Shown here one piece after another: positions 363-12,991 of a DNA stretch of 31,694 bases. The notes under the pieces were generated by a model. That model worked only from the letters and a program-made list of their open reading frames with translations, did not search any database and was not told the origin of the DNA. Every line of letters begins with the position of its first letter. Positions within the stretch are counted from its first letter, which is position 1. The translations under genes were made by a program, and so were the position numbers. Origin of the DNA: Candidatus Hodarchaeota archaeon (GTDB taxonomy: Archaea; Asgardarchaeota; Heimdallarchaeia; Hodarchaeales; Hodarchaeaceae); contig JAEOTQ010000200.1 in NCBI GenBank assembly GCA_016839785.1, positions 1 through 31,694 on the forward strand, read 5' to 3'.

Positions 363-1481
363 TTAGCGTAATGAAAATACAAGTATTTTTCTGGTCAATG
401 ATCGATGAACATACTGTAAAAATTTCCTATACGACGCATTGAGAATGCTAGCTGCCTTATCTTCTAGATCAATTGTTGAGGGAATTGAGATGACTAGACG
501 ACTTCTAGGGGGAAGTATTGACTTAATTTCATGAAAAAATTGCAGAAGAAGATCATTAAGGTCGTAACCCTGAGTTGATGCAGCAGTTCCATATGGGGGA
601 TCTGTGACAACACCGGATATCGCACCAAAACAAAATCCTAAGTGTTTTGCATCTCCAAACACTAAATTAGTTAAAGAATGAGTCATATCATCTGATTTTA
701 AATTTCTAAACGCTCCCCATACGATTCGACGGTCAACTTCAATTCCCACACTTTTAAGACCCAATCTAGAGGCTTCGATCAACGCTCCACCTGTCCCACA
801 AAAAGGATCCAATAACCATTGACCCTCCTTTATTGCTGCGAGGTTGACTAGAGTCCTTTGTAAAATGGGATTCATTGAACTAGGATGAAAAAAAGGGCGG
901 TTCCTTGCAGTCCGTTTCCTAACTATATTTCGCTGAGACTCAAAGATGTGTAAACCAAACCACAACCCAAATTTACTCACAATGACACGATATATTTCTG
1001 TGGGATGTTTCAAATTCACTTTTTTTTCAGGAAATCGTTTCAGAATGACTTTTCCAAAATGGTTTGTTAGTTTTTGTGTAGTTTGGGAGTCCATTAATAT
1101 TCCGATCGGATTTCTAATTCGTCTTGTTCTTACACAGAATGTAGCCGATGAATCTAGATCTGATAAATTGTTGGTCTCAAACTGTTGAATTAATGCTTCA
1201 AATTCATTAATTGAATTATTCTTGTATTCAATTTGAAATAGGGTTTTACAGCAATAATGAACCATTGTTGCTCTATGTATCACCTTTTGAAGAAGGAAGT
1301 GTTCATCTACTGTATCCGATTTCTCTTTCATAGTTATCTTGACAATTCGTGAATCACTCGTGTATTCTAAACTGATACTTTCATCTAGAGTAGAGATAAT
1401 ACTTTCCAACTCATATTGCGCAAGTTCGGGATTTTCTCCTGACAAAAGACAGAAATACTCGGAAAAAATTCCTGAATTCAT
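363..1481 (-). CDS. trmG10: tRNA (guanine-N2)-methyltransferase, Trm11/TrmG10 family (THUMP + Rossmann MTase)
   Basis: N-terminal LSGENPELA; THUMP-like TFCVR...KVNLKHP; RPFFHPSSM; SAM motif LDPFCGTGG; catalytic TDPPYG; C-terminal YVHRSLTR. Confidence 0.9.
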   Translation of the reverse strand: MNSGIFSEYFCLLSGENPELAQYELESIISTLDESISLEYTSDSRIVKITMKEKSDTVDEHFLLQKVIHRATMVHYCCKTLFQIEYKNNSINEFEALIQQFETNNLSDLDSSATFCVRTRRIRNPIGILMDSQTTQKLTNHFGKVILKRFPEKKVNLKHPTEIYRVIVSKFGLWFGLHIFESQRNIVRKRTARNRPFFHPSSMNPILQRTLVNLAAIKEGQWLLDPFCGTGGALIEASRLGLKSVGIEVDRRIVWGAFRNLKSDDMTHSLTNLVFGDAKHLGFCFGAISGVVTDPPYGTAASTQGYDLNDLLLQFFHEIKSILPPRSRLVISIPSTIDLEDKAASILNASYRKFLQYVHRSLTRKILVFSLR

Positions 1482-1543
1482 AATAAAATATCCCTCATTA
1501 TTACAATAACTAAATAAAAGATTTTTTAGATATATAGGACATC

Positions 1544-2650
1544 CTAAGAGTAGTAAGTAAGGTTTTCGTCAAATACCTTCGCTTTCTGTAATGAATCATT
1601 TAATTCTTTCATTGTGATACTATCACGATGATATAATACTGCGTAATGAATAGCACTTTTGATAATTCTTTCTTTCAAGTCTCTTCCAGACCAATTAGCG
1701 GTTTGTCGAACAATCAAATCCCATGATATGTCATGAAAAGGAATAGGGGACGACTTTGCATATAAATCCAAAATATTTTGTCTTTCAGAAGAGGTAGGGT
1801 ATTTAAATTCAATTAAATCTTCGAATCTACTTAAAATCGCTGAATCCAGGATCTTGGGTTGATTTGTAGAGCCTATTGTAATGATTCCCTGATTAGTGTC
1901 AATTCCATCCATTTCTCCTAACAATGCACTTACTAACTCTACCACATCGCCCCTTATGCTTTGAAAATTTCTTTTCAGCGCGATTGAGTCAAGTTCATCG
2001 ATAAAAATTACTGCTGGTGCAGATCTTCTTGCTTCAGAAAATAAATTCTTGATTTTTCTTGCTCCGTCACCTACATAAATACCTAATAAATCACTCGCTT
2101 TAATTAAGAACATTGGACTCTTGATCTTATTAGAAAGAGCTTTAGCCATCATCGTCTTTCCATTTCCTGGAGGGCCCCAGAAGAGAATGTTTTTGGGTGC
2201 CCAAGGAGAGTTCATTAAATCTACATTCCTTAGAAACTTTCCAACAATCTGACATTTTTCTTTTGCTTTTTCCTGACCAATTATATCACTGAAAATTGTC
2301 TGTTGCTGACTGACCTTATTGGTAGGATCAATACTTTGTTCAGAATGTAAAATGATTTGGGTATTTTTAGTAATTTGAGATTCTTTAGGTTCAACAACAA
2401 TTGCCCGAAAAGCATAATCGGGAAATATAAGAGAATCGAATAAAAAATTCCCTTTCTTTACAACTAGTCCAATCCATTGGCTTCGTGCATAATGCTGGAA
2501 AAGAGAGGGATCATCAGTTGATAGGAATGGGGATGCTTCATCTCCTGCCTTTAATGGATATCCTACGGGTGATAATACTAATCTATCCATTTTTAACGCC
2601 GTTTTAGTAAATGATCCTGATTTAGGTTTAATTTGTGACTTATGTTCCAC
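1544..2650 (-). CDS. AAA+ ATPase, AMA-like (COG1223 type)
   Basis: N-domain PVGYPL motif; WAPKNILF followed by Walker A GPPGNGKT; Walker B IFIDELD; SRH TNQP..LDSAILSRF. GTG start, exact start uncertain. Confidence 0.85.
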   Translation of the reverse strand: MEHKSQIKPKSGSFTKTALKMDRLVLSPVGYPLKAGDEASPFLSTDDPSLFQHYARSQWIGLVVKKGNFLFDSLIFPDYAFRAIVVEPKESQITKNTQIILHSEQSIDPTNKVSQQQTIFSDIIGQEKAKEKCQIVGKFLRNVDLMNSPWAPKNILFWGPPGNGKTMMAKALSNKIKSPMFLIKASDLLGIYVGDGARKIKNLFSEARRSAPAVIFIDELDSIALKRNFQSIRGDVVELVSALLGEMDGIDTNQGIITIGSTNQPKILDSAILSRFEDLIEFKYPTSSERQNILDLYAKSSPIPFHDISWDLIVRQTANWSGRDLKERIIKSAIHYAVLYHRDSITMKELNDSLQKAKVFDENLTYYS

Positions 2651-2888
2651 TCTGATGATTCATCTCCATATATTAACCCTTTATTAAAAGATTCTTAGAC
2701 GTCTTTCAAATCTTTTTTCGCAATTGTGAGTATTCTTTTCGATAATAGAACAACTTTTAATTTCTATAGCATTGAGTTGTAAATGCCCTGAAGTAGTGTT
2801 TAGTTGTAAATCAATTCACGACTAGCATTTGTATTAGAATTCAGGTTTGATAATGGAAAAAATCCAACCTATTCGCATTGAATTACAG

Positions 2889-2991
2889 GGGTTCGTGGTC
2901 TAGCTTGGCTAGGATCCGTGCCTGGGGTGCACGAGTTCAGGGGTTCGAACTTATGCCTATACTAAGCATAACGAAATTCCCCTCGAACCCA
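2889..2991 (+). tRNA. tRNA-Pro(GGG) with 28-nt intron at 59/60
   Basis: Acceptor GGGTTCG/CGAACCC+A; D arm GTCT/GGAT; anticodon arm CGTGC-CT-GGG-GT-GCACG; T stem AGGGG/CCCCT. Removing 2950-2977 restores T loop TTCGAAT. No encoded CCA. Confidence 0.95.
2950..2977 (+). other. tRNA intron with bulge-helix-bulge motif
   Basis: Central helix TTCG/CGAA, 3-nt bulges AAC and ATT, intron stem TTATGC/GCATAA. Confidence 0.9.
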
Positions 2992-3111
2992 TTTTACATC
3001 TCTTCTTTTTCGTCCCTGGTCCATGAGAGTCGACACCGACTAATTCATACATAATATGACGATATTACCCTATCCTATAATATTTTTGTCGGTTAAGGGT
3101 ACATAACAAAA

Positions 3112-4398
3112 ATGAAGGCTAATCCAATGGAATCAATTTTAAAAGATGCTCTAAGTGGAACAGGATCGTTCAAAAATCTCGGAGAAGTAAAACGGGATCG
3201 AACAACACAGTTTATACCTTCTCCTCCAAAAATTGATGATGAAATAGCAGATATCTTAACTGAACGACTGCCTAAAGTCCAAGTTGTAGGAGTCGGAGGC
3301 GCAGGGAATAATGCGATTTTTCGTCTAATGACTACAGAGGTAGATGCTGAATGTGTTGCAGTTAATACAGATGCTCAGCATTTGTTGTCAACACGAGCAC
3401 ACAAGAAGCTCCTTATCGGAAAAGATACTTCCAGAGGATTTGGAGCAGGAAATAATCCAGAAATTGGAGAAACTGCTGCGCGTGAATCCCTAGAAGAAAT
3501 TAAAAATACTTTACAAGCAAATATGATTTTTATCACATGTGGTCTAGGTGGAGGAACAGGAACAGGTGCGGCTCATGTAATTGCACGACAGGCAAAAGAA
3601 AAAGGGGCATTGACTGTATCAATCTGTACTTTACCTTTTCAAATGGAAGGTGTCAAACGATACGAGAATGCCAGGCAGGGTTTGAAAAAATTATATGAGG
3701 CCTCTGATACAGTAATTGTAGTTCCTAATGAAAAACTTCTCCAGCTCTCTGAAGATATCACTATGATGGCAGCATTTAGAATAGCTGATGCTGTACTAAT
3801 GAGAGCTGTAATGGCTATCACAGAGCTTATAACAAAACCACAGCTTATTAATCTTGATTTTGCGGATGTAAAAAAGATTTTAACTGAGGGGGGTATGGCA
3901 ATGATTGGATTAGGAGAATCTGATCACCAAACCATGAAAGTTGATGAAGCAGTATTCGAAGCACTAAGAAACCCATTACTTGATGATTTAGATATTAGCA
4001 GGGCAAAGAAAGGACTCATATGCGTATCTGGTGGGGAAGGATTGGCCTTAAAAGATGCAGAAGAAGCAGTGATGAAAATAGCAACAGAAATCGATAATTC
4101 TGCTGAAATCATCTGGGGAGCAACCATCGATCCCGACCTAGGAAATAAAATCAGAGTAATCGTAGTATTAAGTGATGTCCATTCACCTCTGACGGAGAAC
4201 GAAGGATTATATTATTCCAAGAGTGATTTAGAGTCATTACTTGCTGATTTGGACTCTCCGTTCTCAGTCATTTCATCAAAAAATCGGAATTCAGAGGAAC
4301 ATAGAAACAATTTACCCTCTGCTCGGTTCTCCATTGAAGATGATCAAGACACAGATGTGGGAAAAACTCGTAAAAAGAAATTCTTAGGGCTATTTTAG
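3112..4398 (+). CDS. ftsZ: Cell division GTPase FtsZ
   Basis: GVGGAGNN, NTDAQHL, GAGNNPEIG, tubulin signature GGGTGTG, T7 loop INLDFAD. N- and C-terminal extensions; ends RKKKFLGLF. Confidence 0.96.
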   Translation: MKANPMESILKDALSGTGSFKNLGEVKRDRTTQFIPSPPKIDDEIADILTERLPKVQVVGVGGAGNNAIFRLMTTEVDAECVAVNTDAQHLLSTRAHKKLLIGKDTSRGFGAGNNPEIGETAARESLEEIKNTLQANMIFITCGLGGGTGTGAAHVIARQAKEKGALTVSICTLPFQMEGVKRYENARQGLKKLYEASDTVIVVPNEKLLQLSEDITMMAAFRIADAVLMRAVMAITELITKPQLINLDFADVKKILTEGGMAMIGLGESDHQTMKVDEAVFEALRNPLLDDLDISRAKKGLICVSGGEGLALKDAEEAVMKIATEIDNSAEIIWGATIDPDLGNKIRVIVVLSDVHSPLTENEGLYYSKSDLESLLADLDSPFSVISSKNRNSEEHRNNLPSARFSIEDDQDTDVGKTRKKKFLGLF

Positions 4399-4475
4399 GA
4401 ATTGAACGTTTATTCTCTAGCCCTTGACAAGTTTTTTTCACCTCTATACTATTCTCTTTTTAGTAAGAGGTTGAT

Positions 4476-5144
4476 TTAGTTTATACTTAGACCGATTTTC
4501 TTAGCAAATACTTCCATCCCTTCTCCGGTTTTAGTACTTGTGGGAACTACCTCCAATTGAGGATATAGCTCATTGGATCCTTTTATAATTTCTTTAACAT
4601 CAATGTCCATTGCTGAAGCAAGATCTACTTTATTAAGAATAGCTAAATCGCTCATTCTAAACGTAACAGGATGCTTTCGGAATACATAAGGTCCTTCTGT
4701 AACACTTGTTACGGTTATCTTTTTATCGGCCCCAACATCAGTTGATGAAGGACAAATAAGATTTCCGACATTTTCAACAAAAATAAAGTCAAATTTTTCG
4801 AGGTTAATAGTCGTAAGAGCTTTTTCAATCTGAAAAGCCATTAGATGACACCCGCGTCCTGTATTTATCTGAATACATTTGCTTCCAAATCGACTAATTC
4901 TCTGTGCGTCAATATCTGTTGCAAGATCTCCATTAATAACAAGGAACTTTTGATTTTTAGCAAATTCTCTGGAAAAATACTCCAAGACGGAAGTTTTTCC
5001 AGATCCAACGCTTCCCATTATATCAATCATCGGAATATTAAGATCAAGCCTTTTTTGGCGGATTCTGCCTGCAATTAGATCATTTTTCTCCTGAATCTTT
5101 TGATCTATCTGCACATTAATTACTTGGGGCATCTTTCGTTCCAC
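4476..5144 (-). CDS. hypB: Hydrogenase nickel-insertion GTPase HypB
   Basis: GSVGSGKT, GDLATDIDA, QINTGRGCHL, ENVGNLICP, SVTEG, NKVD. Confidence 0.93.
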   Translation of the reverse strand: MERKMPQVINVQIDQKIQEKNDLIAGRIRQKRLDLNIPMIDIMGSVGSGKTSVLEYFSREFAKNQKFLVINGDLATDIDAQRISRFGSKCIQINTGRGCHLMAFQIEKALTTINLEKFDFIFVENVGNLICPSSTDVGADKKITVTSVTEGPYVFRKHPVTFRMSDLAILNKVDLASAMDIDVKEIIKGSNELYPQLEVVPTSTKTGEGMEVFAKKIGLSIN

Positions 5145-5202
5145 ATCTAAATATGAGAAAGAGTTTTTTTTATCTCTTCTGTGGATGATAAATTGGATCT
5201 AA

Positions 5203-5574
5203 ATGCACGAATTTTCTCTAGCTCAATCAGTACAAGAAACAGTCGAATCTATTGCAAAAGAACGCGCAGCGAAAGAAATTGTGAAAGTCATACTCAAGTT
5301 CGGTGCCTTTGCCCTTATTGAGGAAGATCAATTCAGATTTTGTTTTGATATCTTAAAAAAAGAATCCACATTGCTTGAAAATGCAAAGTTGGAGATAACT
5401 TGGATTCCAGGAGAATTACGATGTCAAGAGTGTAATTTTGAAGGAAAAATTGACAACATCCCGCAGAAACACACCGAATTAGCTCCAATTTTTCAATGTC
5501 CGACATGTAAGAGCTATGCAACAGATATTATTTCAGGAACGGAAGCGAATATCGATTCCATCGTAATAAATTAG
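5203..5574 (+). CDS. hypA: Hydrogenase maturation nickel metallochaperone HypA
   Basis: N-terminal MHE Ni motif and two CxxC Zn pairs (CQEC, CPTC); divergent from hypB. Confidence 0.93.
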   Translation: MHEFSLAQSVQETVESIAKERAAKEIVKVILKFGAFALIEEDQFRFCFDILKKESTLLENAKLEITWIPGELRCQECNFEGKIDNIPQKHTELAPIFQCPTCKSYATDIISGTEANIDSIVIN

Positions 5575-5605
5575 GAGTATATCTCATTTGTGCATCAGAG
5601 AAAAT

Positions 5606-6088
5606 TCATTTTACGATGCAATTGATACGGCTATTTTTAGGGTCTAATTCACAATGAAAGAGAATGTTGCTGTGAGGAAAGATTGAAATTTCGTTCTCTT
5701 TCCAGCTTACATTAATAATTTGACCAGTGAAACCATTATCCTTAATGATAGGTTCTCCTTGCATAACAACCATTGAATTATTATCTTTACTTACGAATAA
5801 GATGTTATTCTTTCTTTGTGGATCAGCTACTACATCTGAAATTGGATGTACTTCCTCCCTAATTTCAAAACCTTTTGAGATCCATTTTATTCTTGTTCTT
5901 ATTCCGAGATTCTGTATTTGCTTAAAAATTAGAATTTTTATCCCAGATATAATAAACCCAATTTTCTCTGTGCTGTCTTCAGTTCCCAATTCTTTATAAC
6001 CCGTGACTTGGAATCCGCGTGATTTTTCTTGATTGGATGGGTTTAATGAACACTGAATATTCTTGATAATAATCCTTTTTCCAGCCAC
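5606..6088 (-). CDS. Hypothetical protein, predicted beta-rich
   Basis: 160-aa ORF filling the gap, GGGG upstream of the GTG start, no recognised motif. Confidence 0.6.
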   Translation of the reverse strand: MAGKRIIIKNIQCSLNPSNQEKSRGFQVTGYKELGTEDSTEKIGFIISGIKILIFKQIQNLGIRTRIKWISKGFEIREEVHPISDVVADPQRKNNILFVSKDNNSMVVMQGEPIIKDNGFTGQIINVSWKENEISIFPHSNILFHCELDPKNSRINCIVK

Positions 6089-6428
6089 GATTTTAACCCC
6101 TTATAAAATTTCAATAACACTGTAACATCAATTCATGTAAAAACTTACATCTTTTTTCAATTTGCTTCAATGAATCCAATTATTCATCCTTAAACTTGGA
6201 ATAATGCTATTACTTATCTTGGCAACAATATGTTGATGATTTCCTCTAATATATCTTATTCTCTTTTATCTAGTAAAGTTAATTTAATTTGAACTATGTG
6301 ACAATCTTTGATAAGATAATTAAATCTTTACTTATTAAATACAAACGTCAGTAAATACAAAATTTTATTTTCCTAATTTAAGGTGACATGATTTAGTACG
6401 GAGATTCAACAGGAATGTGGAATAGATT

Positions 6429-7472
6429 TTGAATTCAGTTCGATTTATTAGTAATACTCTTGCAAAAAAACATTCTAATGGGAGATTCCATCCCGAATCT
6501 CCTCAAAGAATTGAAATGATTGAGAACTGGGTTTCATCCCAATTAGGTGACGATATTTCTTTTGAAATCTCGGATAAACTGGCAAGTAAGGATGATATTT
6601 TGTCTGTTCATACAGAAGACCATCATGATCTTATTGAAAAGACTAAAAACTATGATGGTCATTTCTACTTTGATGGGGATACAGCCGCAAATAGCTATTC
6701 CTATGAGGCGGCCATGCAAGCTGTTCAAATTGGAATACAAGCCGTTTTTGAAAGTACGAGAAATTCTTCAATATTCTGTCTTGTACGCCCTCCAGGTCAT
6801 CATGCAACTCAACATACCCCACAAGGATTTTGTATCTTCAATAATATTGCCGTAGGTAGTCAAATCGCGCTTAATAAGAAGAAATACCAACGAATTGCAA
6901 TTCTGGATTTTGACCATCATTTTGGAAATGGAACAGCTTATATTAACGAATCCAACCCTAATATTTTATATATAAGTACACATGCTGATCCGAGAATTTC
7001 CTATCCAGGATGTGGGTTTTCAGACGAAATTGGGTTTGGAGAAGGACGTGGATTCAACATTCCAATTCCCCTTGGATATAGAGCCTCTGAAGCGGATCTA
7101 GAAATTTCTTTTGATTCGATAATAAATCCCATTATATACCAATTCAAGCCTGACTTTCTAGCCATTAGCGCGGGATTTGATGCATATGAAAGAGACCCTA
7201 TTGGGGTATTAGGGGTAACTGTTGATGGATTCAGACACATTGGAAAAATGATTAAAAAAATCACCGATAATCTGAATATCCCCTATGCACATTTCTTGGA
7301 AGGAGGATATAATATCAATCTCTTACCAGAATTAGTATCAGCATATATAGATCCTTTTATTGGAAAAGAGGATTTTAAAGAAAAAATAAATCCCTCCCTT
7401 CAAATAAAAGAGGAGACTAAAACAACTATCCAAAACTCTAAGCGCGTATTAAAGGACTACTGGTCTCTATGA
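6429..7472 (+). CDS. Zn-dependent histone deacetylase family protein
   Basis: HPESPQR, RPPGHHA, GFCIFNN, DFDHHFGNGT, SAGFDA, LEGGY. TTG start uncertain. Confidence 0.92.
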   Translation: MNSVRFISNTLAKKHSNGRFHPESPQRIEMIENWVSSQLGDDISFEISDKLASKDDILSVHTEDHHDLIEKTKNYDGHFYFDGDTAANSYSYEAAMQAVQIGIQAVFESTRNSSIFCLVRPPGHHATQHTPQGFCIFNNIAVGSQIALNKKKYQRIAILDFDHHFGNGTAYINESNPNILYISTHADPRISYPGCGFSDEIGFGEGRGFNIPIPLGYRASEADLEISFDSIINPIIYQFKPDFLAISAGFDAYERDPIGVLGVTVDGFRHIGKMIKKITDNLNIPYAHFLEGGYNINLLPELVSAYIDPFIGKEDFKEKINPSLQIKEETKTTIQNSKRVLKDYWSL

Positions 7473-7502: not shown

Positions 7503-7510
7503 TTTAAATT
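7503..7510 (+). promoter_or_regulatory. Putative TATA box for the C/D sRNA at 7532
   Basis: TTTAAATT preceded by an A-rich BRE-like stretch, about 25 nt upstream of the sRNA stem. Confidence 0.5.
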
Positions 7511-7531: not shown

Positions 7532-7625
7532 GGAAGGATCCCATGATGTCTCTAGCCCTACCGATAAGGAATACTGAATTCAGTACCCCTAGATGATGAT
7601 GATCTTGAGTATAGAGGATCCTTTC
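7532..7625 (+). ncRNA. Box C/D methylation guide sRNA (predicted target tRNA-Leu(CAA) C34; second guide possibly SSU rRNA)
   Basis: 10-bp terminal stem GGAAGGATCC/GGATCCTTTC, 3-nt bulge, C box ATGATGT 7543-7549, guide 7550-7560, D' CCGA 7561-7564, internal hairpin, C' ATGATGA 7593-7599, 12-nt guide 7600-7611, variant D box TAGA 7612-7615. Confidence 0.75.
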
Positions 7626-7640
7626 ATTTCAATAATAGGC

Positions 7641-8105
7641 TCAAGATTTCTCTTCAAATAGTTCTTCTCGAATCCTAGAACTACTCAGCTTTTTACCTTT
7701 ATCTGTTGTCACAATTGCAGATAGAATGATTGTTATAGGAGGTTTTTTTAACGTACTTCTTTCATGATTAATAACTAGTGCTCCGGAGTATGTTTCTTGC
7801 GATACTAATAAGGCAGGTAGATCGGATATGCTTGCAATTTGTTTATCCTTACCGAAAGAATCAATTTTGATAATGGAACAAGTTGTATTTCTGGATTTGA
7901 GATAATGTATGAGTGTGGCAGAACGTATTTTGAATGGTTGAATGTGTTTCCCTAGTGCTTTGGGTCTTTTCTGCAAATATTTTTCACTAATCAACCCAAT
8001 TTGGATAAAATCTGAATAATATGAAGCAAGATCTAATATTAGTTCATGACCAGCATGGAGACGATCAAAAGTTCCGCCTAGACCTAATTTTTCAAATTTG
8101 GACAT
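7641..8105 (-). CDS. coaD: Phosphopantetheine adenylyltransferase (archaeal/eukaryotic type)
   Basis: GGTFDRLHAGH (HxGH), LVSQET, KLSSSRIR. Confidence 0.88.
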   Translation of the reverse strand: MSKFEKLGLGGTFDRLHAGHELILDLASYYSDFIQIGLISEKYLQKRPKALGKHIQPFKIRSATLIHYLKSRNTTCSIIKIDSFGKDKQIASISDLPALLVSQETYSGALVINHERSTLKKPPITIILSAIVTTDKGKKLSSSRIREELFEEKS

Positions 8106-11887: not shown

Positions 11888-12991
11888 ATGCGAATAATAA
11901 AATCTGACTTACGTACAAATCAAGTAATTATTCGCGCCGAGACTCCTACTGATTTATACATTTTGTCAACGATAATTGTTAATGGAGATAGAGTAATTGC
12001 TAAAACTTCTCGCCGTGTTCGACGAGCAGGAACTGAAGGTAGATCAGGAGATGAAAGCCAGCGCATAACAATGATTATTGGTATTGATGTAGAAGGGCAA
12101 ATTTTTCAAGAAAGTGTTGCAAGTAATCGATTGCGAATAAAAGGAAGAATTTTCAAGGGGCCTGAACAACATGTATCAATTGGTTCATATCATACAATAA
12201 ATGTTGGTCTATCAGATACCATAACCATTTTTAAAACTGAATGGTCAAGATATTATCTGAAAATCCTAGAAGATGCAGAAAACGCATCAAAAAAGCCGAA
12301 GATTGGGTTAATAGCAGTAGATACAAACGATGTCTGTATTGGAATACTGGATAATTATCAACTGAATGTTCTATTTCAAGAAAAATCTGGAGTAAGTCGA
12401 AAACATTCAAAAGCAAAGGTGAGAAAGGAACAATCAAGTACGTTCTTTGGGTCAATTATTGAGCTTGTACAACGTAGTCTTTTACCTGAAACAAAAAACA
12501 TACTAATAGGTGGACCAGGATTCGTTAAAGAACGATTAGCTGATTACTTAAGGAATTCCTTACCCAAAGAAAATCTTAACATTGTAATTGGGAGCTCATC
12601 CAGCGGTGGTAATCGGATTGGTTTATTCGAGCTTATGAAATCTGAAGCTCTTGACAAGTTGGCCAAAGATTTTCAGATTCTTGTAGAACAACGAGACATC
12701 GATGAGTTTCTACAGAGAATAAGTAAAGGTACAGGAGACATTGCGTATGGATACAGTCATATCAAACAAATTGCAGAAACTGGAGTAATTGAAACATTAT
12801 TGCTGATTGACTCGTATCTTCATGGGACTAATCAGGCCCCAGTTTCAGATATACAAGATTTATTAAAGACCATCGAGCAGACAAAGGGAAAATTAGTTGT
12901 TATTTCCTCTCAAAGTGATTCAGCCTCCCAACTGAAAACTTTTGGAGGTATGATTGCCTTGCTTCGTTATGCCCTGAGCTGGGAAGCATAA
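11888..12991 (+). CDS. pelA: Pelota/Dom34 ribosome rescue factor
   Basis: DLYIL..I..GDRV, RLRIKGRI, GSYHTI, GPGFVKE, IAYG, QLKTFGGMIALLRY. Confidence 0.93.
   Translation: MRIIKSDLRTNQVIIRAETPTDLYILSTIIVNGDRVIAKTSRRVRRAGTEGRSGDESQRITMIIGIDVEGQIFQESVASNRLRIKGRIFKGPEQHVSIGSYHTINVGLSDTITIFKTEWSRYYLKILEDAENASKKPKIGLIAVDTNDVCIGILDNYQLNVLFQEKSGVSRKHSKAKVRKEQSSTFFGSIIELVQRSLLPETKNILIGGPGFVKERLADYLRNSLPKENLNIVIGSSSSGGNRIGLFELMKSEALDKLAKDFQILVEQRDIDEFLQRISKGTGDIAYGYSHIKQIAETGVIETLLLIDSYLHGTNQAPVSDIQDLLKTIEQTKGKLVVISSQSDSASQLKTFGGMIALLRYALSWEA

Follow-up and report, generated by a model that had tools for sequence, protein, structure and literature searches.

A stretch of 31,694 nucleotides (nt) from a Candidatus Hodarchaeota archaeon (contig JAEOTQ010000200.1 of assembly GCA_016839785.1), here called the window, carries at positions 7532–7625 of its forward strand what is almost certainly the gene of a real archaeal box C/D small RNA (sRNA). 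The element has a TATA-like box, a terminal stem of 10 base pairs (bp), boxes C, D', C', and D, and two guides. One guide is complementary to the anticodon loop of transfer RNA (tRNA)-Leu(CAA), with the wobble base at the site predicted to be modified, and the other is complementary to a motif within introns of leucine precursor tRNAs (pre-tRNAs). Taken together, and judged from sequence comparisons, these features suggest that the sRNA probably directs 2'-O-methylation of the wobble base of leucine tRNAs, with its second guide docking on an intron. The assembly that contains the window (contig C180 in our numbering) is 4.04 Mb in size, has 248 contigs and 36% G+C, and is 84.5% complete; about half of the tRNAs of this genome are absent from it.

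The D guide and the wobble base of leucine tRNAs

The D guide (UGAUCUUGAGUA, 12 nt) occupies positions 7600–7611 of the forward strand. Its N+5 base is G7607, the fifth base 5' of box D (UAGA). A preliminary description, made from the window alone, had pointed this guide at C34 of tRNA-Leu(CAA), and a search of the tRNAs of the same genome for its complement located the exact site. ARAGORN called a tRNA-Leu(CAA) gene (contig C222, complement of 11962–12077), interrupted by an intron of 30 nt, that contains ACTCAAGATC, the complement of the guide, and C34 lies opposite G7607. All 10 of 10 pairs formed with ACUCAAGAUC of this tRNA are Watson–Crick (−15.4 kcal/mol), the duplex is the best among the tRNAs of the genome, and none of 1000 shuffled D guides paired equally well with the anticodon arm. 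The 10-mer complementary to the D guide occurs 18 times across both strands of the 4.04-Mb genome, the antisense of the sRNA itself included, so that a match somewhere is expected, but a match centered on the wobble base is not. With ∼46 wobble positions divided by 4^10, we estimate the chance of a wobble-centered match at ∼4e-5 per guide.

The genus to which the window belongs is represented by 22 genomes, and the tRNA-Leu(CAA) ortholog was parsed in 18 of them (genomes G001, G013, G017, and G020 are left out); the mature tRNA keeps ACUCAAGAUC in all 18. The position of the intron in this gene differs between clades of the one genus: it is at 37/38 in eight genes, within the anticodon stem (5' strand) in seven, and in the D-loop in G008, and the genes of G007 and G003 have none. 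Among the eight genes with an intron at 37/38, the full 10-mer arises solely after splicing in seven, with the window's own genome as the exception. That splicing restores the 10-mer in seven of these eight genes, and that it is kept in all 18 orthologs, implies that selection has kept the D guide matched to the spliced tRNA. In intron-dependent guided wobble methylation, of the type of Haloferax volcanii sR-tMet and tRNA-Trp, the methylating duplex includes bases of the intron, which makes the precursor the sole substrate. Within the genus, the predicted methylating duplex forms without such bases. In family f3, the D duplex is extended by the first one or two bases of the intron.

The D guide can pair with two other leucine tRNAs. 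With ACUUAAGAUC of tRNA-Leu(UAA) it forms 10 bp, nine of them Watson–Crick and one a G7607·U34 wobble pair (−12.8 kcal/mol), and with tRNA-Leu(UAG) it also forms 10 bp, eight Watson–Crick and two G·U (−12.5 kcal/mol). The sequence GGACUUAAGAUC is kept in 21 of 21 tRNA-Leu(UAA) genes of the genus. Based on the exact complementarity and its conservation, the sRNA very probably guides 2'-O-methylation of C34 (Cm34) in tRNA-Leu(CAA).

The D' guide and a motif in leucine pre-tRNA introns

The D' guide (CUCUAGCCCUA, 11 nt) lies at 7550–7560 of the forward strand with C7556 at N+5. Its complement is found in introns of leucine pre-tRNAs at two different positions, one in family f3 and one in the window's genus. 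Genome G038 (genus g7 of family f3), a single contig, has 14 non-self AGGGCTAGA sites, two of which are in anticodon-loop introns, those of tRNA-Leu(UAA) and tRNA-Met(CAU). Its congener G028 follows the same pattern, with two of eight sites in anticodon-loop introns. Across family f3, GGG[C/U]UAGA is present in the anticodon-loop introns of 18 of 18 tRNA-Leu(CAA/UAA) genes, a count that includes 16 full-length leucine genes outside g7 (eight Leu(CAA) and eight Leu(UAA)), and it is also in the tRNA-Met introns of both g7 genomes (2/2). In all 11 f3 genomes from which both the sRNA and a leucine gene were recovered (11/11), the D' guide forms 9–11 contiguous bp, the D guide forms 10–12 bp, and 13–22 nt separate the two sites.

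In the window's genus, the motif is in a different intron. The tRNA-Leu(UAA) gene of the window's own genome is 158 nt long and previously unannotated (C235:2914–3071, minus strand; locus L265:1501–1658), and has two introns, one of ∼55 nt in the D-arm and one of 18 nt at 37/38. It had escaped both ARAGORN and the Rfam tRNA model. The tRNA-Leu(UAA) of g7, used as a query, found no orthologs in the genus, and the own-genome gene was located by a motif scan. Orthologs were located in 21 of the 22 genus genomes, and the D-arm intron holds GGGCUAGA, which is complementary to the D' guide, in 20 of the 21. The word GGGCTAGA is likewise present in 20 of these 21 D-arm introns, and its reverse is in 0 of 21. 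The motif is the sole near-invariant block of an otherwise variable intron and is flanked by an outer helix on one side and a covarying hairpin on the other. The distance from this D' site to the methylation site is ∼50 nt.

Energies of the D'–intron duplex in relatives range from −15.3 to −17.1 kcal/mol, and one of 1000 shuffled guides was as good. In G060, the guide has a G-to-A change opposite a U of the intron, which turns a G·U pair into an A–U pair. We consider it likely that the pairing between the D' guide and the intron is biologically real. Contigs of public runs X1 and X4 have a G at place 1614 of locus L265, restoring GGGCUAGA where the assembly has GGGCUAAA; the difference may reflect strain variation or a sister species in the same sediments.

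Searches for other targets of the D' guide

The preliminary description had suggested that the D' guide is aimed at helix 21 of small subunit (SSU) ribosomal RNA (rRNA), so that one sRNA would act on both a tRNA and rRNA. Searches for the D' complement did not bear this out. In the window's own genome, the SSU gene was not found and no rRNA is assembled. In the complete SSU gene of G008, the sole one recovered from the five genus genomes searched, there is no D' site at ≤1 mismatch with G·U pairs allowed, and the same thresholds gave no site in the pieces of large subunit (LSU) rRNA from G008, G017, G005, G001, G011, and G014. These scans returned merely weak matches (7–8 Watson–Crick pairs) or matches on the wrong strand, and a split-site search over the G008 SSU gave noise. 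The helix-21-like stretch of G008, GUAGGGGUGAAA, has three mismatches to the required GUAGGGCUAGAG. Since the D' guide is instead complementary to an intron motif, the proposal of one sRNA acting on tRNA and rRNA becomes one of an sRNA that would hold a pre-tRNA at two places.

Other candidate sites were also rejected. The complement of the D' guide, TAGGGCTAGAG, has no occurrence in the window's own genome beyond the sRNA itself. Searches for the 10-mer AGGGCTAGAG, exact or with one mismatch, found the sRNA alone in G008 (99% complete) and G007, and the matches in G010, G016, and G014 are in coding-like DNA with no tRNA nearby. The 10-mer search within the genus failed because the true intron site pairs over just 8–9 bp. 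Likewise, the exact 9-mer of G051 had 0 of nine matches in tRNAs because its intron reads GGGUUAGA. The spliced D-loop of tRNA(CAU), UAGG/GUUAGAG, was dropped as a D' site, as the bulge-helix-bulge gives a mature AGUCUGGUUA identical to the intronless gene of G006. A G·U-tolerant scan of the window's own genome yielded 260 sites, none in tRNAs called by ARAGORN, and the same type of scan over 20 tRNA loci of G008 gave no match. A split-site scan beside T-loops found nothing useful.

Conservation of the sRNA

BLASTN recovered the element in 19 of the 22 genomes of the genus. A covariance model (R1) constructed from the alignment of these 19 copies identified the sRNA in all 22 genus genomes and, of the 83 genomes in the class, in 64, with matches in families f2 (2/2), f3 (27/31), f7 (3/3), f6 (1/1), f5 (4/12), and f4 (5/12). 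Genomes of one genus are not independent samples, and counts within it should be read in that light. In 19 of 19 aligned genus copies, both guides are invariant (CUCUAGCCCU in the D' guide and GAUCUUGAGU in the D guide), and boxes, linker hairpin, and flanks vary. The outer 6 bp of the terminal stem are 91% paired across the 19 homologs, versus 44–68% with the partner slid, and the stem that closes the C'/D' motif (alignment columns 36–41 with 62–67) is 91.5% paired, with three pairs changed on both sides.

Boxes change in a coordinated manner. In the 19-copy alignment, box C is AUGAUGU or AUGAYGG and box D is UAGA, CGGA, CCGA, CAGA, or CUGA; the canonical CUGA is present in G016, G018, and G013. 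Box D' is CUGA in G020, G021, and G005, CAGA in G011, and CUGA in most copies outside the genus. The UAGA form of box D is found only alongside AUGAUGU as box C, in five genomes of the window's own clade, and variants of the two boxes change jointly across relatives (e.g., AUGAUCG with GAAA in f4 and in G022). The variant boxes C and D can pair with each other as the preliminary description had it, and their joint change in relatives is consistent with a retained kink-turn, a geometry read here from sequence. The pairing of AUGAUCG with GAAA recurs in two separate families, at f4 loci L179, L248, L250, L251, and L254 and at L175 (G022); it would swap one sheared G·A pair for A·A and add Watson–Crick pairs, as a kink-turn variant. 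Genome G001 holds two copies of the sRNA. In the copies of G001 and G017 (loci L176 and L177), the D guide reads GAUUUUGAGU and the boxes depart from consensus (D' possibly AAGA, D CCAA); these copies may be decaying or may have an unusual kink-turn variant.

Outside the genus, 28 copies were inspected. The D guide sequence AUCUUGAGU is kept in 22 of them, AU[CU]UUGAGU in 27, and UUGAGU beside box D in all 28, meaning that every copy has G at N+5. The D' guide UCUAGCCC is kept in 12 of the 28, and in the others, changes are mostly transitions, such as CUCUGGCCCUU in f4 and CUCUGGCCUU in f7. Linkers between boxes D' and C' are 28–33 nt within the genus, and both copies in the sister family f2, of the same order, have long hairpin linkers like those of the genus. 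The 26 inspected copies outside the order are short canonical sRNAs with linkers of 3–6 nt, the exception being G042 (family f3), which has a longer linker. Within the genus, the long D'–C' hairpin, shared with f2, coincides with a motif shifted to the D-arm intron upstream of the anticodon; this is a correlation alone.

The genomic context is partly conserved. A cytidylyltransferase-like gene is present at 19 of the 19 genus loci, DnaG at 17, and the histone-deacetylase-family gene at five. Neighbors of the sRNA outside the genus differ.

Anatomy and locus of the element

The letters and coordinates that the preliminary description gave for 7532–7625 are all present in the sequence, and its identification of a box C/D sRNA agrees with the four boxes, two guides, 10-bp terminal stem, and conservation. 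All features are on the forward strand. The 5' arm of the terminal stem, GGAAGGAUCC (7532–7541), pairs with the 3' arm, GGAUCCUUUC (7616–7625), in 10 bp that include one G·U. Box C (7543–7549) is the variant AUGAUGU, which matches the consensus RUGAUGA at six of seven positions, and box D (7612–7615) is the variant UAGA, which matches two of the four positions of CUGA and keeps the GA. The internal boxes, as read from the sequence, are the variant CCGA for D' (7561–7564) and AUGAUGA for C' (7593–7599), the latter being RUGAYGA in relatives. Guide spacers are 11 nt (C to D') and 12 nt (C' to D), relative to an expected ∼12 nt and a range of 11–13 nt among relatives. The linker between boxes D' and C' is 28 nt (7565–7592) and consists of the stem that closes the C'/D' motif and a hairpin with a perfect palindrome, UACUGAAUUCAGUA, at 7572–7585. 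Its length departs from the short K-loop linker of a few nt that is usual in archaeal box C/D sRNAs. We read the long linker as a lineage-specific insertion, which gives no ground to exclude the element from box C/D membership.

The TATA-like box, TTTAAAT, is at 7503–7509, ∼25–29 nt 5' of the terminal stem's first G, and is directly preceded by an A-rich stretch that resembles a B recognition element. By eye, 16 of the 19 genus homologs have an equally spaced box of the TTTAAA/TTATAA type. Reading it as a TATA box follows the general rule for archaeal promoters. A scan for sigma-70 promoters and intrinsic terminators gave no match, and the sigma-70 model is inapplicable to archaea. The element occupies most of a 168-nt gap between convergent open reading frames (ORFs) at 6429–7472 (+) and 7641–8105 (−). 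Its neighbors are the histone-deacetylase-family gene and the cytidylyltransferase-like gene, and a DnaG-type Toprim gene is located further out. Elsewhere in the genome, on contig C189, genes for fibrillarin (PF01269, 272 bits) and Nop5 (Nop, PF01798, 223 bits) adjoin each other.

A second site in the window resembles part of the D' guide. At 4386–4424, within a 77-nt gap between convergent ORFs at 3112–4398 (+) and 4476–5144 (−), there is an inverted repeat, AGGGCTA...TAGCCCT, of which the 3' arm, CTCTAGCCCT, equals ten letters of the D' guide. No C/D boxes were seen in it, and it is probably a terminator-like hairpin that matches by chance.

A proposed mechanism and its alternatives

The sRNA is predicted to be transcribed from its own promoter and to act in trans. 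Given its anatomy, its conservation, and a genome that encodes fibrillarin and Nop5, it would assemble with L7Ae, Nop5, and fibrillarin into a ribonucleoprotein (RNP) with 2'-O-methyltransferase activity. The N+5 rule and the conserved duplex suggest that its D guide would bind tRNA-Leu(CAA) at the anticodon loop and lead to Cm34, acting on the spliced tRNA in this genus. The D' guide would bind the intron motif GGGCUAGA of leucine pre-tRNAs, as suggested by complementarity at two different intron positions. Before splicing, a leucine pre-tRNA that still has its intron could thus be gripped by the sRNA-containing RNP (sRNP) at two points, the anticodon loop and the intron. If it serves as a docking handle, the intron might set an order of modification followed by splicing or might chaperone the folding of multi-intron precursors. 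The handle may have moved with the intron from the anticodon loop to the D-arm, and the sRNA may have gained its long D'–C' hairpin.

That intron pairing acts as an anchor or chaperone is, in our judgment, about an even prospect. Docking is favored because the paired register is conserved and the intron base at N+5 is not. It is favored also because weak duplexes are held to be stabilized when both guides bind together, and because the duplex with tRNA-Leu(UAA) has a G·U pair at the target site, suggesting no methylation there (both points following PMC4644070). More tentatively, the intron motif of leucine pre-tRNAs, and of methionine pre-tRNAs in one genus, may exist to recruit a trans-acting C/D sRNP via a second, nonmethylating guide.

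Several observations weigh against parts of this interpretation. At gathering scores, a search of the whole window against Rfam gave no matches; in E-value mode, there were four weak matches, all to CD-box families, with a best score of 16.7 bits versus a threshold of 38. The folding energy of the whole element is ordinary (z = −1.16; 24 of 200 shuffles fold equally well). Covariation in the stems is weak, as the three pairs with double changes were reached by 48 of 500 shuffles, and box D UAGA and box C AUGAUGU are both off consensus. A Watson–Crick pair at the target site is treated as critical for methylation (PMC4644070), and 2'-O-methylation of U34 (Um34) in tRNA-Leu(UAA) is doubtful because its N+5 pair is G·U. 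The intron of the window's own genome reads GGGCUAAA, which reduces the D' duplex to 6 + 1 bp (−11.0 kcal/mol), a value equaled by 12 of 1000 shuffles. Ten bases of the D' guide are invariant in the genus and the intron pairs with 8–9 of them, so a further D' target may exist. The intron base opposite N+5 differs as well, being the third G of the motif in the genus, where spacers are 11 nt, and the first G in g7 and g8, where they are 13 nt. For the D' variants of families f4 and f7, no tRNA site was found in their own genomes, where non-self 11-mer matches are all in coding-like DNA and leucine genes were not recovered. Lastly, LSU positions 1423–2720 are covered only by G005 and one possibly foreign contig of G001, such that a D' site in rRNA is not fully excluded.

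Among alternatives, the foremost is that the D' guide itself directs methylation of a G in the intron, for instance to protect or mark the intron once it is excised (and possibly circular) or to set the timing of splicing. We regard this as unlikely. In every lineage examined, the D' guide and the motif are joined at N+5 by a Watson–Crick C–G pair, and the C'/D' motif looks complete, with AUGAUGA and CCGA or CUGA closed by a stem. But it is the pairing that is conserved, and the position to be methylated moves between the third and first G of GGG; the literature searched, in the text available, describes no role for a methylated intron base. Somewhat less probable still is that the main substrate of the D guide in the genus is pre-tRNA-Leu(UAA), perhaps with tRNA-Leu(UAG), and that the sRNA is chiefly a chaperone for folding or splicing of the two-intron tRNA-Leu(UAA) precursor, with tRNA-Leu(CAA) secondary. 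The invariance of GGACUUAAGAUC, the presence of the D' motif in the same precursor, and the 10-bp duplexes with both tRNAs fit this view, and double-guide sRNAs have been proposed as chaperones (PMC4644070). Yet tRNA-Leu(CAA) alone gives a Watson–Crick pair at N+5 together with the strongest duplex, and the N+5 base is G rather than A in 19 genus copies and 28 copies outside; an invariant G fits C34 rather than U34.

It is also improbable, in our view, that the D' guide is an orphan or has another main target, be it rRNA, another tRNA, or a splice junction, in which case the intron match would be coincidental and the motif kept for a reason of its own. Ten guide bases are invariant in the genus where the intron pairs with 8–9, the intron of the window's own genome is mismatched, and its rRNA is unassembled, all of which leave room for another target; the tRNA-targeting sRNAs of Pyrobaculum commonly carry one guide without a target (PMC7994747). 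Coincidence is, however, difficult to reconcile with a motif that is complementary at two intron positions in three tRNA species (20/21 and 18/18 leucine genes, and 2/2 methionine genes of g7), with the absence of the reversed word, or with the guide change in G060 that keeps the pairing. Nor did the SSU and LSU scans return a site at ≤1 mismatch, and the exact 10-mer in G008 is the sRNA alone. Least probable by far is that there is no sRNA and that the element is a conserved intergenic hairpin, such as a terminator for convergent genes, with box-like words arising by chance. It is indeed flanked by convergent ORFs, and its fold is no more stable than those of shuffles. But two unpaired stretches of 10 nt that stay invariant throughout the genus, and for the most part throughout the class, while stem and loop vary are not what a terminator would show, and neither is a match to the wobble site of a tRNA at N+5; the flanking genes change outside the genus and, for the histone-deacetylase-family gene, even within it. 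Docking of the second guide on the intron, coupled with modification of the wobble base, remains the reading that we prefer.

Novelty and implications

An arrangement in which a trans-acting sRNA aims its second guide at an intron appears to be new, as no description of this was found in the available texts of the literature searched, supplements aside. A large survey of Pyrobaculum scanned mature tRNAs and rRNAs only, according to its available text (PMC6009581). C/D sRNAs of Asgard archaea were likewise not found in the texts searched, and the word "Asgard" is absent from the available text of a 2021 review of archaeal C/D sRNAs.

The analysis adds one well-supported family of sRNA genes, spread across Heimdallarchaeia, for which a target tRNA is defined. 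For annotation, the intergenic region at 7532–7625 becomes an sRNA gene, and the two-intron tRNA-Leu(UAA) on contig C235 becomes a tRNA gene. If docking is true, tRNA introns may harbor a site at which a guide RNP docks, which would be a testable function of introns. If it is general, many "orphan" second guides of archaeal sRNAs that target tRNAs would pair with introns. Asgard archaea are the nearest relatives of the eukaryotic branch, and docking, if true, would provide a selective reason to keep tRNA introns in the archaeal lineage closest to eukaryotes.

Other observations on tRNA and rRNA genes

The tRNAs of the window's own genome (contigs C206, C220, and C222; loci L053–L072) are rich in noncanonical introns, with examples in the D-loop of tRNA(CAU) and the D-arm of tRNA-Leu(UAG). 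On contig C113 (∼1300–6900) there are three repeats resembling 3' halves of tRNAs (T-arm and 3' strand of the acceptor), each preceded by a similar G-rich word, within ∼6 kb. These could be split-tRNA halves or integration sites. Locus L216 (G008:C11:135782–136048) was called by ARAGORN as an intron-containing "tRNA-Pyl (CUA)" and is probably a misparsed intron-containing tRNA. Two features of rRNA genes were noted from G008 (C9:1695–3919 and C9:31–1435; C8). Its SSU gene spans 2225 nt versus a model of 1478 positions, which suggests that it holds large insertions or introns. Across the genus, LSU rRNA was found only in pieces on several contigs.

Comparison with known systems

The closest counterparts of the D guide are the wobble guides of Pyrococcus. 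There, sRNAs are predicted for position 34 of tRNA-Leu(CAA) and tRNA-Leu(UAA), and of tRNA-Met and tRNA-Trp (PMC7994747, PMC7668247). The preliminary description had called a Cm34 guide for tRNA-Leu(CAA) known in Pyrococcus; such sRNAs are indeed reported, but in the available text of these sources they are predictions. Similar to the Pyrococcus guides, the sRNA in the window stands alone, has an antisense element over the anticodon loop that puts the wobble base at N+5, and is predicted to target C34 of tRNA-Leu(CAA). It differs in that Pyrococcus is reported to have a separate sRNA for each tRNA, whereas here one D guide fits tRNA-Leu(CAA) perfectly and tRNA-Leu(UAA) via a G·U pair. Compared by description alone, it also differs in that its second guide pairs with an intron motif and in that its host belongs to the Asgard archaea rather than Thermococcales.

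Wobble riboses are also modified by protein and eukaryotic systems. Bacterial TrmL is a protein enzyme that makes Cm34 and cmnm5Um34 in tRNA-Leu(CAA) and tRNA-Leu(UAA) (PMC4615657), and so shares with the sRNA both leucine isoacceptors and the wobble ribose, but it is protein-only and unrelated in mechanism and ancestry. Human SNORD97 and SCARNA97 guide Cm34 of elongator tRNA-Met (PMC6601510). Both are likewise C/D RNAs that guide wobble Cm34 on a tRNA, but on a different one, and no intron contact is described in the available text.

The use of two guides is reminiscent of double-guide C/D sRNAs on rRNA, for which binding at nearby sites is held to stabilize the complex and a chaperone role has been proposed (PMC4644070). 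As in those, both guides here are predicted to bind nearby sites of one substrate, and one duplex may be nonmethylating. Unlike those, the substrate is a pre-tRNA and one of the sites is spliced out, so contact at both sites is possible on the precursor alone.

Two systems combine a C/D RNP with a tRNA intron. In Haloferax volcanii, the box C/D sRNA sR-tMet guides Cm34 of elongator tRNA-Met (PMC4033218). It and the sRNA in the window share a trans-acting C/D sRNA, Cm34 at the wobble position, and a pre-tRNA that contains an intron. sR-tMet requires the intron-containing precursor, and the duplex of its methylating guide itself runs into the intron. Here, in contrast, it is the other guide that pairs, wholly inside the intron and 13–22 nt (f3) or ∼50 nt (the window's genus) from the methylation site, and in this genus the duplex with tRNA-Leu(CAA) is matched to the spliced tRNA. 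In the case of pre-tRNA-Trp, the intron functions as the box C/D guide, for both Cm34 and Um39 (PMC11408192, PMC6313347). Both cases bring together a tRNA intron, a C/D RNP, and wobble 2'-O-methylation, with two guides on one pre-tRNA. In pre-tRNA-Trp, however, the intron is the guide, whereas here the intron would be the target of a guide encoded elsewhere, and the roles are reversed.

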